Positions 38,308-62,919 of a DNA stretch of 64,000 nucleotides are shown piece by piece (the stretch's first letter is position 1; each line of letters opens with the position of its first letter). The stretch is taken from NCBI GenBank assembly GCA_951406725.2, contig OX597817.1, forward strand, positions 103,788,001 through 103,852,000, read 5' to 3'. The stretch is from Octopus vulgaris (Eukaryota). Under the pieces are notes generated by a model. The model searched no databases. It was not told the DNA's origin and was given only the letters and a program-made list of their open reading frames with translations. The translations under genes were made by a program, and so were the position numbers.

Positions 38308-38745
38308 TCTTTTATTCTTTTACTTGTTTCAGTCATTTGACTGCGACCATGCTGGAGCACCGCCTTTAGTCGAGCAAATCGAGCCCAGGACTTATTCTTT
38401 GTAAGCCTAGTACTTATTCTATCGGTCTCTTTTGCCGAACCGCTAAATTACGGGGACGTAAACACACCAGCATCGGTTGTCAAGCGATGCTGGTGGGACA
38501 AACCCAGACACACAAACATATACACACATACATACATACATTCATACACACACACACACACACACACACACACATGTATATATATATATATATATATATA
38601 TATACGATGGGCTTCTTTCAGTTTCCGTGTACCAAATCCACCCATAAGGCTTTGGTCGGCCTGAGGCTATAGTAGAAGACACTTGCCTAAGGTGCCCCGC
38701 AGTGGGATTGAACTCAGAACCATGTGGTTGGTAAGCAAGCTACTT
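38308..38745 (-). mobile_element. SINE family A, head interrupted by a Tx1-like LINE
   Basis: Family A sequence ends at GGTAAGCAAGCTACTT. Confidence 0.9.
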
Positions 38746-41350
38746 TATTTCATGAAATTTGCCATGACGGCATTACAAAGAGGGGACAAAGACACAAACA
38801 TAAAAAGGTGTAGTAGCTGCTATAACGATTAAAACTTTATGACGACAAATACAATTTAAAAATTACAACTAACAATTTATAATTTACACTTTACAAATTA
38901 CACATTACTATTTATTGATTACATTATGACATGTTACTCATTGCGATTTGCAATGACTTCCCTGAAGGAAAGGCATCCGACCAGGGTAGAACCCTTGCTC
39001 TCTCTTTCCCTTTCTTTTCTGGACTCCACTTACCTGGTGCCAATCGCTCCCAACTTCCTTATCACAGGCTTCCATCTTTTCATGAATCTGTCTTGTGACA
39101 GGTACCTCTTCTCCAGCCTGACCTTCCCTATCCTGCTCGCACCTTGGACATGTCGGTGAGACGGCCCTTCCGTACATTGATAGTTTATCACAAACTGGTA
39201 ACGCCGCACGGAAGCACTGCCAAGCCAAAGATTTCTGGTAATTATCCAGGTACCCAGGCCCGAACGTTCTTCTGCCAAAATCTTTAACTCTGTGTTTAGT
39301 AGAGTTATGGACCGGAAGTTACTAATCTCGTCCCCCTTGCTCGGGTCCTTTCTGATCAGCGTCACCACCCCTCGGCTTGCAAACTTGGGAATTCTCCTAT
39401 TCTGCGGCCAATTGGCGTAAACGTTGGCCAGCAGGTGCCCGAACAAGTCTGGCATACTCTTAGTACCTCGATCACCTCATCGACTGTGATTGACCCTGAA
39501 CAGCACTCAGCCTCTCATGCGGAGAGACGCGACCGCCAGAGAGGAAGTCCCTAAGGGCCTCACCATGATCCAGCTTCCCGCTCCTCCCGAACAACCCTGC
39601 AAAGTGCTTGTAAAGCGCCTCACACATCTCGTCCCATCCGTCGACCGAACTCCCATAGTCGTCAATCAGAGACCTAATTGTGGTATCATTGCCACGCTGT
39701 GTTTCTACCGCACGGGCCCATCCGGCAACATTAATTCCCTCACGGCCCAATGTTCGCACTTTAGCCTGAACTCTACATCCCTCATGTTCAGATGGTCCAG
39801 TCTGTAACGATCTGCTAACTGAAATTTCTTCAGCAGATCTACGAGATGCGAATTTACTTTTCTATCGGTCGAGACAATGCTATCGATGTGTGCGTCACCG
39901 ATAGCGTTATAGTCTCTTAACACCACTAATGTCTTCGACGACACGATAAAGTTCTCTAGGCGCCGATAAAAATCAGTTTGTAATCGTCTAGCATAGGGTG
40001 CATAGATCTTGATCAACCTGAAAGCCTTTCCGCTGTGTGTCACATCATGGACGACCAGCCCACCTTCAGGGTCCGCATAGACTGTACTTGTCTGCAGAGC
40101 CAAGCCTTTACGGACAAATACTACTACGCCCCCACGAACTCCAGTCTGGCTAGGAGTCATGATTTTCTCATATCCATTCAGAAGGGGTGAGAAGGTTAGT
40201 AGACTGTCCAGCTTGGTCTCTGTAGCAACCATCACATGCATGTGTGATCTGAGGTCGTCGTAGAAACAGGCTTGTTTCCACTTCAAGCTCAGACCACGCA
40301 CATTCAAACATCCAAGATTAAGCGATGCCATAAATACAGTGGAGAAGAAAGCAAGGGCTCTACTTACCCTTGACTGATGATGTTGGGGCCGACCTTACCA
40401 CACGTAAGGCAGCCCCTTCTTTCTCCTCCTTCTTCAAGTACTCGGGCAGGGCCACAAGCCTCCTGAAATTTTCAGGATGCCTTTCCTTTAACTGTCTGTA
40501 TAGGGTTTCCCCTATACAGGCACACCTTTCATTTAAGTCCCTGTGTTTGGGAAAATGTTTGTGAGATGATGATTGACGACAATCTCATCCATATACATGT
40601 CTTTAGTTTTATATTCAATTAAGACTTTGGTGTCTTCTTTCTTTTCTGGGGCGATGGGACTTTTTTTTTTTGTAACATGTGGTGCTGTGCTGTTTTTGTG
40701 GGGGTGGGGTGGGGATTGCACATGAGCCCGTTTCCAAACTAATGTGCACTCCCTCTCGGACACCTCCATGGTGTCGTCTGGAGGAGTCATGTTTTTCTTT
40801 ACACTGGGTGCCTCAGATATCAAGGGAGTGGGGGCTTGTGTCTGCAGGGATTGGGTCGTTTTGTTTGTGTGTTTTGGGGACGGCACCGCAACAGTGGGTG
40901 GTGGGAATGTTTGTCTTTCTAGGGGCTGGGGTGTGTGTAGGCTTGGGGTTATTTTTCATAATTGTAGGGCCTAGTGTCTGTAAAGGTTTATCATCCCTTA
41001 GTTTCTCCTTCTTTCTCTCTTCACAAGGGAGCCGAATGTGTCCCTTCTTTCCACATTCATAACAGGTGGGCATTTTACCCTCCTCCTGTATTCGAATGGT
41101 CACATTCTCCCCCACGAGCACCCGGTCTGCTTTGTCCCACCCAATTTTGAGGGGCAGAGCATGTAATTTGTAAAAATTTGATTTTTTTCTGCTCTGTTGT
41201 ATAACACCTCCCTCGGGTCTATTTCAGGCGGCACTTCTGTCACCTTTACACAAGAAGTGCGCCTCCCTATGTATGTTGACAGAAGTACCACCTCCTTTAT
41301 TTTCAAGGGGCTCAACGAGTACCTGTGGACCATTTCTTCTGTTTTAAATC
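38746..41350 (-). mobile_element. Tx1/L1-clade LINE, internally deleted
   Basis: ORF1 CCHC knuckle CYECGKKGHIRLPC; ORF2 APE endonuclease (LNVRGL, ETKL, YAP, DYN); RT start NFRSITLLNTELKILA; C-terminal CPRC; 3' tail ending AATAAA. Confidence 0.88.
39705..40331 (-). pseudogene. LINE ORF2 APE-type endonuclease domain
   Basis: 208-aa ORF MASLNLGCLNVRGL... with APE motifs; joined to downstream sequence by a deletion. Confidence 0.85.
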
Positions 41351-43110
41351 TTCTGTTTTAGGCAGTTATTACATATCCCAGGGCTCTAATAATTACAGGA
41401 TAGAGTGACTGCAGATTTTTCAATAGTTCAGCGTAGGTGTTCTCTTTTTTACTGATCTTCAGCTTTATGTTAACATCTGTTGGAATGCTAATTTCCACTT
41501 CTGTGCACAGTTTCTCCTCTCTATCTCAAATCATTATATCAGGTCTGTTGTGTTTACATTTTATTGAGGTCTTCACTGGCGCATTCCACCAGTATTCCTT
41601 TTTATTATGAGTGGCTATGGCTTCTGCCATATTGTGAGTTCTTATTTTTTTGTCCTCGGAATTATCCTTCCGGTGGATTTAAATATAGTGTGTCCTAGCT
41701 ACAACGCCATGTCTCATCGGTAGATAATATTGTGATGACATTTTCGGACAACTGCTTATGATGTAGGTGTTATCTTCAGTGTGAACTCCACAAAGTCTGC
41801 ACCAGTTGTCACATTTTACCGCTTTTCTTACAACTCTATCCCTTTTGTGCATCAGGTATTTGATTGATATTTCCTGTTCCTAGATTCAAACGCATACCCT
41901 TCAAAATGGGAAGTAGTAATCTGGTCTATGATAAACTGTTTCGATGAACGATGTTACTATCATCTCGGAGCTTTCTAGTAACATATCCATGCATAGTCTT
42001 CCACTCATATAGACTCATCTTTTCATCTGATCATACGTTGCGGTAGAGTCGTGCGACTTCTATGGGCATGTGTTCTAGGTTATCAGACAAAGAGTGTTTC
42101 TCAAGGAGCTGCCTTCCATGTCTTTAGAATGTTATCAGCTTCATGTATGCAAACTTTGTCAAGAGATGCACCTCGATATTTGGTGGTTAAAAGATGTTGC
42201 AGAGGGGATATGATGCGACATTCAAAGGCATTTTGGATCGATGTTAAGCCTCTTCCACCTTGTTTTCGTTTAGGTAGAGGCGGTCTAAATCATTGTTTAT
42301 GTGGAAATTATGTGTGCTTGTTAGTATTTTTCGGGTTTTCATATCAATGGCTCGGTTCTTATATAACAACATTTATCCTGGCCAAACTCCGACCCTACAT
42401 CCTTTGAGAATGTTGTAACTAGGTCAAGTTTTCATCTCATGTATATTCTTTTCATAAAGGGTTAAGTCATCCACAAAGAAATATTGTGTAATTTTGTTAT
42501 TTCCGTTTCCTTGTGAACCAGTGAGATATCCTTCAAACTTCCTTAACATGAATGACAAAGAGTTTACAGAAAGTATAAACAACATCACAGAGAGGCTGTC
42601 TCCTTGGAATACGCCTTTGCGATACTGTATTCTATCGATGATAATAGTCACTCTTTGTGTTTAATTTCAAGACGGCGGCCCACGATGAAGTCAGGTCAGC
42701 TATGGCTATGACTATTCTCACTGGAACTTTAGCAACTTGGAGGGCTTCTAGCATCCATGAGTGGGGAACAGAGTCAAAGGCTTTCTTGTAGTCTAGCTAC
42801 ATTGATACTAGGTCCCTCCTATGCTCTCGAACCTGCTGTCTCCAAACATCATTTCTATCTCCTTATTTACTTTCTGTTGGTGGGAATTATAGTGATTTGT
42901 TTGTTTGCATGCAATAAGCATCATCACATTGATGGTCTTCCGTAAACCAGTTACCTTTTTCTCTCACTTCAAAATTATGGTACTTTCTTCATTTCGGTTT
43001 TATTTACTTTTTGAATATCATACCAGTATGTGGGTTCATTTCATTGTTGTAAATACTTATCACCAATTTCGTTAACAGCTTTTAATACCGTATCTAGTGG
43101 GTTTTTTCTA
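41350..43110 (-). mobile_element. Decayed RLE-type LINE (R4/Hero/NeSL-like)
   Basis: RT: KGVFQGDSLS, FFVDDL; CCHC-like CRLCG...SSC...RH; restriction-like endonuclease RPDIMI...EISIP...K. Confidence 0.82.
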
Positions 43111-62145: not shown

Positions 62146-62455
62146 ATAGTGAAGAACAAATACTGCTAAGTTGATTAAAAGCATTCTAAAAGTTAACACA
62201 TAAATAAATAAAACATATGCATACATACATATATGTACATACCTACAGCTATATGTATATATACATGCATATATAGGTACAGGACACAAAAAAAACGTAG
62301 AACACAACGAGAAACGAAAACATGAAAACAAAAACATGCAAACGGACTTTTCCAAACAACGAAAAAACAGAGTACAAGACCGATGCCCAAGACATTGTTC
62401 TGCGACATATCAAAGGTGGGTGGTTGTGGTTACCAAGAAACCATTCCAAATATGC

Positions 62456-62919
62456 TCTTTTACTCTTTTACTTGTTTCAGTCATTTGACTGTGGTCATGC
62501 TGGAGCACCGCCTTTAGTCGAGCAAATCGATCCCAGGACTTATTCTTTGTAAGCCTAGTACTTATTCTATCGGTCTCTTTTGCCGAACTGCTAAGTTACG
62601 TGGACGTAAACACACCAGCATCAGTTGTCAAGCGATGTTGGGGGGACACACACAGACACACAAAACATATACACACACATACATATATATATATATATAT
62701 ATATATACATATATACGACGGGCCTCTTTCAGTTTCCGCCTATCAAATCCACTCACAAGGCTTTGGTCGGCCTGAGACTATAGTAGAAGACACTTGCCCA
62801 AGGTGCCACGCAGTGGGACTGAACCCGGAACCATGTGGTTGGTAAGCAAGCTACTTTATTTCATGAAAATTCGCCATTAAGGTAAGCAAGCTACTTACCC
62901 CACGGCCACTCCTACGCCT
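62456..62919 (-). mobile_element. SINE family A with a 24-bp Tx1-tail insertion in its head
   Basis: TSD GGTAAGCAAGCTACTT at 62841-62856 and 62881-62896. Confidence 0.93.

Follow-up and report, generated by a model that had tools for sequence, protein, structure and literature searches.

L1-group, likely Tx1, retrotransposons inserted at one base of a tRNA-like-headed SINE in Octopus vulgaris

RESULTS

Three SINE copies are broken at the same base

The region analysed is a 64,000-nt stretch of Octopus vulgaris DNA (GCA_951406725.2, contig OX597817.1, positions 103,788,001 to 103,852,000, forward strand), hereafter the window. In it, three copies of a short interspersed element (SINE) with a tRNA-like head, SINE-A, are interrupted by non-LTR (long terminal repeat) retrotransposons of the long interspersed element (LINE) kind (Table 1). 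A reading of the sequence alone had placed breaks between positions 38745 and 38746, 44365 and 44366, and 62856 and 62857, and these were confirmed; all are on the minus strand and fall at one and the same SINE-head base. Read on that strand, each junction passes from an element tail into AAG(T/A)AGCTTG, the break falling between GGT and AAG of the head, one base behind an A-box-like motif. The types of insert were also as that reading had described them: a 2.6-kb element with pieces of open reading frame 1 (ORF1), endonuclease (EN) and reverse transcriptase (RT) (element 1), a 1.73-kb ORF1-only element (element 2) and a 24-bp stub. Similarity between elements 1 and 2 is limited to 33 nt of tail. 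Eight further SINE-A heads within the window are intact at the site, and the chance of a random insertion matching this base and orientation is ∼1.2 × 10−4, estimated from 23 SINE bodies in 92,189 bases of tRNA-selected loci.

Within the window both junctions survive at the stub only, where a 16-nt target duplication is followed by the head. Element 1 is 5′-truncated and internally deleted, its 5′ end and SINE head being lost, and upstream of element 2 only an eroded head remnant is left.

Table 1. Elements and SINE-A copies at the three junctions and an unbroken copy (target types are defined in the text)
Feature	Position	Strand
SINE-A body 1, target core (38730-38745, T-type, TTACC) to SINE 3′ end	38302..38745	-
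Family F1 element, 5′-truncated, internally deleted; 5′ limit approximate, no SINE head upstream	38746..41350	-
F1 element pieces: ORF1 with CCHC knuckle; EN; RT and C-terminal region	∼40363-41387; 39777-40331; 39033-39849	-
F1 tail 3′ stem-loop, predicted, common to all tails	38761..38771	-
SINE-A body 2, target core 44350-44365 (A-type)	43940..44365	-
Family F2 element of 1.73 kb, ORF1-only, with both ends; 3′ stem-loop 44380-44392	44366..46098	-
Probable eroded remnant of SINE head and upstream duplication (from locus L141 compared with L142-L170)	46099..46111	-
SINE-A body 3 with downstream copy of 16-nt target (62841-62856)	62450..62856	-
Family F3 24-bp stub	62857..62880	-
Upstream 16-nt target copy (62881-62896) and SINE-A head with A-box-like motif (62897-62919)	62881..62919	-
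Unbroken SINE-A copy, empty-site reference; site between 47605 and 47606	47583..48090	+

A candidate fourth junction at 28158 is without the tail hairpin and was left out of the counts. A decayed, unrelated repeat-like stretch (41380-43210) adjoins the 5′ end of element 1 and had no match among the fetched loci. At 13007-13423, two back-to-back SINE-A heads form a 172-nt inverted repeat, 71 nt apart.

Element tails are followed by the same target across the genome

The genome was searched with element sequence alone, so that the flanks were free to differ, and window copies were left out of the counts for F1 to F3. In the family of element 1, F1 (best 30 of 40 scored matches), the full target core came next in 26 of 28 tails, as a SINE body in 23 and as a next element in 3, and AAGTAG only in two; one additional locus was without the tail end. 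The full core lay 3′ of the tail in 23 of 29 copies of F2, the family of element 2, the other six being off-target. F3, the family of the stub, has 53 genome matches at ≤1 mismatch; 30 were sampled, giving the full core in 25 of 29 and AAGT(AG) only in four. A fourth family, F4, was reached through a protein search. Its tail has 128 genome matches, and the core was present in all 73 copies examined, 68 of them with a SINE body. The share of copies at one target sequence is thus 79-100% per family. The off-target F2 sites L033, L036 and L042 are similar to the target. Another 220 exact filled sites of the A-type exist in the genome; the 30 viewed carry many tail types, and at one of them (L406) the sequence is apparently an ordinary SINE head, not an element tail.

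The sequence-only reading had proposed a single SINE-targeting family, and had named unrelated flanks at the tail copies as grounds for giving it up. Genome-wide, the flanks proved not to be unrelated, and the targeting stands. The single family does not: the tails are homologous, but the three window junctions are of three related families (F1, F2 and F3) in a radiation of several.

At loci L171, L172, L176 and L180, and again at L332, L376 and L377, different 5′ ends stand on the same or similar 3′ tails, which suggests exchange of the 5′ untranslated region and ORF1, or unrecognised tandem elements, together with further ORF1-only families.

5′ junctions show independent insertions

Upstream flanks were collected with 5′-end queries and classed by reading them. 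For F1 (n = 29), they comprised a SINE head in 13, an earlier element tail and duplication in 11, a duplication only in one and nothing in four; for F2, a SINE head was found in 25 of 29 and none in four. In truncated copies, which range from 24 bp to >1.3 kb, the head is directly upstream, and target duplications measure 0-16 nt. At loci L049, L055, L060, L091 and L385, SINE variants private to the locus are present in both copies of the duplication. The upstream flanks are distinct in 71 of 73 F4 copies. Tandem arrays occur at duplicated targets, with three F4 in a row on contig C9.

These junctions bear on the possibility that the SINE body is the elements' own 3′ end, or that all junctions derive from one duplicated LINE-SINE chimera, an origin that the sequence-only reading had offered as a test of its own claim. 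The 3′ flank is indeed nearly constant, and window elements 1 and 2 have no intact SINE head upstream. However, the SINE head is directly upstream in copies cut at many different points, private variants are repeated in the duplications, and nearly every F4 upstream flank is distinct. Moreover, the downstream bodies of one family come from different SINE subfamilies, and no fewer than four families, each with its own tail and 5′ end, have this site in common. Both forms of this explanation are refuted by the 5′ junctions, and we regard it as almost certainly wrong. The independence of the insertions is borne out by the many truncation points and by the duplications that copy locus-private variants.

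In F4, base +13 of the downstream target copy tracks SINE-body marker +95 (34:9 versus 1:23, p = 1 × 10−9), and therefore the downstream copy at that base is host DNA. Copying of the downstream target from the element RNA is rejected for +13 by this marker linkage, and is possible for +1 to +6.

At a further locus, L334, records from X12 and X7 match the unique flank as far as position 565, beyond which 21 and 10 letters, respectively, do not align; this hints weakly at an empty allele.

The families belong to the L1 group and form one clade

The 1133-aa ORF2 of F4 matches Exo_endo_phos (PF03372), RVT_1 (PF00078) and zf-RVT (PF13966) in Pfam, and its best PDB match is human L1 ORF2p (E = 4 × 10−67, versus 1 × 10−19 for R2), with EN and RT catalytic motifs aligned. 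ORF1 matches zf-CCHC (E = 4.3 × 10−5), and Pfam gave no Transposase_22 or RRM match for it. The copies also show 5′ truncation, a fixed 3′ end, target duplication and no LTRs, as expected of the L1 group. By these features, the families are non-LTR retrotransposons of the L1 group, the ORF2 of F4 having an N-terminal EN of the apurinic/apyrimidinic (AP) type, an RT and a C-terminal zinc-binding region.

A Type I-like ORF1 with a CCHC knuckle has been linked to Tx1 (PMC5203782) and is the type found here; membership of the Tx1 clade is likely. The cluster look-up and Atlas returned homologues that were almost all unnamed, with no Tx1 name among the relatives, and the nearest named homologue is from Argonauta hians.

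In an ORF2 tree of 39 rows, rooted at the midpoint and without a named Tx1 or L1 row, the SINE-targeting families group as a single clade on their ORF2 pieces (100/96). Adjoining it, with weak support (85/78), are two database proteins, one of them that of Argonauta hians, and a family with (CT)n 3′ of its copies. The EN hairpin loop, which may have a role in target specificity, is identical in F1, F3-like and F4 copies and differs between the SINE-targeting and (CT)n-targeting families. The latter, a Tx1-like sister family at L267-L270 (contigs C29, C10 and C7), has 65-78% amino acid identity to F4 and long open ORF2 frames. (CT)n comes next at 4/4 of its loci, of which L267 and L268, on the same flank, are one duplicated locus.

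All tails have a predicted 4-bp stem-loop, with two-sided changes in three of the four pairs (17 hand-picked tails). F2 is an ORF1-only family, having both ends and remains of ORF1 and the CCHC knuckle, with 5′ and 3′ matches 1.6-2.1 kb apart; a tblastn search for ORF2 over 60 F2 loci gave two edge matches only (L037 and L047).

A second SINE family (repeats D17/D19; 27275-27322 (+) and 54250-54441 (−) in the window, L063:2150-2225 and ∼40 other places) has a 3′ tail similar to the Tx1-like tails, with the same stem-loop. It lies mostly 5′ of GGTATTTCG or (TA)n and at the SINE-A site in only ∼3/42 cases, and was likely mobilised by this LINE lineage.

LINE families match SINE subfamilies by age

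Three SINE subfamilies differ inside the target, with linked markers outside it: A-type (11.4% diverged), TTACC (5.4%) and TAACC (2.6%). Exact empty sites number 6,039, 34,108 and 31,728, respectively, giving at least 71,875 exact, dispersed landing sites. Among hosts in register, F2 is in 14 A-type and 2 other, F1 in 21 TTACC and 1 other, and F3 in 18 TTACC and 3 other, whilst F4, in list order, is in 39 TAACC, 23 TTACC, 1 other and no A-type. These host counts use in-register SINE rows; the flank counts were taken per search, and the pooled set has a few duplicate loci and off-register rows. F4 avoids A-type sites (0/63, p = 0.004) and leans to TAACC (39:23 versus 48% expected, p = 0.02; 45:24, p = 0.005 when 5 copies picked for open frames are included). 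Tail divergence is 0% for F4 and 3.6-5.5% for F1-F3. LINE families thus match SINE subfamilies by age.

Timing accounts for a large part of it. Whether it explains all of it, each family having used the intact copies of its day with specificity unchanged, is a question that we put at slightly below an even prospect. The order of SINE divergence runs alongside that of the tails, F1 and F3 may be older than TAACC, there is no difference in the EN hairpin loop between F1, F3-like and F4 copies, and F4 uses both T-type subfamilies. Against timing alone, 6,039 exact A-type sites are still empty and F4 is in none of its 63 hosts at such a site, and the F1 and F2 tails, although equally diverged (5.5%), split 21:0 and 0:14 between TTACC and A-type hosts in samples that are biased. 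The A-type avoidance by F4 and the F1/F2 split hint, again from biased samples, at real discrimination. A tentative extension, which we hold to be on the unlikely side, is that the LINE clade tracked the SINE lineage, successive families shifting EN preference and 5′ look-alike (see below) after base changes within the target of successive SINE master genes, and coexisting families splitting the subfamilies.

Insertion splits the SINE A-box from the B-box. The case for an arms race fuelled by damage to the SINE is weak, with 128 F4 copies set against >65,000 empty T-type sites.

A target look-alike at the 5′ end of full-length F4 copies

F4 is a young family of 5,437 bp. Among its 73 copies, 15 of which were first chosen for long frames, ORF2 is open over 1130 codons or more in 13, and three of these have an open ORF1 too. 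Full-length copies make up 59 of 73 (in list order, 55 of 68). In all 59 the upstream end reads TAACC, also in the 18/18 whose host SINE is non-TAACC, and a one-base slip or extra base at the 5′ joint was found in 13 of those 18 versus 8 of the 41 others (p = 2 × 10−4). The (T)GCTAACC at the 5′ end of full-length F4 copies is thus their own and does not depend on the sequence of the host SINE, and therefore the last 6-7 nt of the apparent duplication are the element's. The 5′ ends of F2 have a similar recurring CTCG variant (6/25).

tRNA genes and RNA polymerase III

The SINE head has visible A- and B-box-like motifs, and its best local match among 30 tRNA genes was tRNA-Ala (score 62 versus ≤51, the L196 row having been scored on the wrong strand). 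ARAGORN and Rfam made no tRNA call on the SINE, Rfam giving chance matches only. The octopus SINEs OR1 and OR2 are named in passages of PMC4824008 and PMC4758252 that give no sequence by which to identify the SINE described here.

Parental tRNA genes had been raised as an alternative target, for which a small sample gave no support. The non-SINE downstream flanks did not match any of the 30 tRNA genes fetched (seven isotype calls, only 63 candidates scored), and the context GGTAAG(T/A)AGC was absent from all 30. One of the loci, L196, has seven tRNA-Cys-like genes clustered in 3 kb.

Ty3 and the Dictyostelium TRE elements are tethered to RNA polymerase III factors. Targeting here could likewise be real and yet depend mainly on tethering to such factors at the SINE promoter, with a loosely specific EN. 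The site is one base behind an A-box-like motif, F4 leans to the youngest and probably most promoter-competent subfamily, and the off-target site L036 resembles the head of another short repeat. However, the non-SINE downstream flanks are without a match to the tRNA genes examined, and the off-target sites L033 and L042 have some sequence in common with the target and show no SINE head. Tandem arrays have only one half of the promoter near the site, and the sister family, whose EN hairpin loop is different, has (CT)n as its target. We consider tethering as the main determinant to be improbable.

A model of insertion

We judge it highly probable that an L1-group, likely Tx1, clade inserts at one base of a tRNA-like-headed SINE, and that it does so likely because its AP-type EN reads AAG(T/A)AGCTTG. 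The EN would nick the strand opposite the junction of GGT and AAG, reverse transcription would be primed by the target from the stem-loop tail, and a variable second cut would fall ∼9-16 nt downstream. The cDNA end may then pair with the target overhang via the 5′ look-alike to complete the insertion, a step that would account for the abundance of full-length copies and for the slips of one base at the joint. The duplication leaves new targets, hence the tandem arrays, and ORF1-only families may be mobilised in trans via the common 3′ stem-loop tail.

Several points weigh against this model. The F1 and F2 copies sampled were those that best matched the window copies in BLAST, which makes these samples biased. 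The full core is missing in 6/29 F2, 4/29 F3 and 2/28 F1 copies, and upstream of most of these no duplication could be seen, so that some may be later disruptions. At L258, a young F4 copy, the base at +4 is A upstream and T downstream, and a few 3′ bases could derive from RNA. Half of the RNA polymerase III promoter is kept in tandem arrays, which leaves some probability to tethering. Finally, the EN of an autonomous A-type family was not recovered, L421 containing a short ORF2 piece only.

Other features of the window

An element at 265-1862 with 134-nt inverted ends (265-398 and 1729-1862) and transposase-like frames (558-1109 and 1225-1611) is presumably a Tc1/mariner copy. Long inverted arms (52883-53193 with 58185-58497) bound the segment 52883-58497, and reading frames lie within 58976-60227, those at 59535-60227 resembling what we take to be a Penelope-like RT.

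DISCUSSION

Few LINEs with an AP-type EN are site-specific, and most of those target conserved genes, microsatellites or DNA transposons. To these a SINE is now added.

Other transposons, microsatellites and RNA genes are among the described targets of Tx1 elements (PMC4494074). Kojima's criterion for a target-specific Tx1 is one sequence type in >20% of flanks (PMC4494074), and shares of 79-100% therefore place the present families well above it. The closest likeness is to Tx1L in Tx1D of Xenopus and to Tx1-Mar, Tx1-8_Crp, Tx1-4_AMi and Tx1-9_AMi of crocodilians, which have an interspersed-repeat target, tandem insertions and non-autonomous partners (PMC4494074). There the targets are transposons of the DNA or LTR kind, Tx1-Mar entering its own in two regions (PMC4494074), whereas here the target is a SINE head, hit at one base (73/73 for the young family) by families that match subfamilies. 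Kibi and Koshi ((TC)n and (TTC)n) and Keno (U2 snRNA) are likewise sequence-specific Tx1 elements (PMC4494074), as would then be the (CT)n sister lineage (4/4 loci); unlike theirs, compared by description, the target here is neither a microsatellite nor an snRNA gene. Dada elements also enter at an A-box or anticodon region by sequence recognition, but are DNA transposons and use real tRNA genes, at nucleotides 8-13 (PMC8869645); the main text of that paper does not contain the word SINE. F2 resembles HAL1, the half-L1, in being a non-autonomous ORF1-only derivative with its partner's ends (PMC5753468), and differs in its CCHC-type ORF1 and site specificity.

A repeat annotation of Octopus vulgaris lists 13 recently active L1-Tx1 families with 421 insertions and 2,288,644 bp (PMC13282606). 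Their mean length is 5,436 bp, compared with the 5,437 bp of F4; the main text of PMC13282606 describes no target and lacks the words target, nested and specific. A term search of the text of PMC9115989 and PMC12988792 returned no mention of Tx1, and a Dewa LINE of octopus was looked for in the literature without a find. No SINE was described as a LINE target in the literature searched, Repbase and the supplements of PMC4494074 lying outside that search.

The most recent Tx1-like insertions here enter pre-existing repeats, not random sites. A fast-evolving SINE as target provides target variants in dated succession, the LINE families that match them and a differently targeted sister, natural sequences that make a change of EN specificity directly testable. 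Two features, the high proportion of full-length copies and the look-alike of the target at the 5′ end, offer a way into the question of how LINEs join their 5′ ends. If the LINE clade did track the SINE lineage, transposon-on-transposon co-evolution would be legible at single-base resolution, with a young, intact family at hand.

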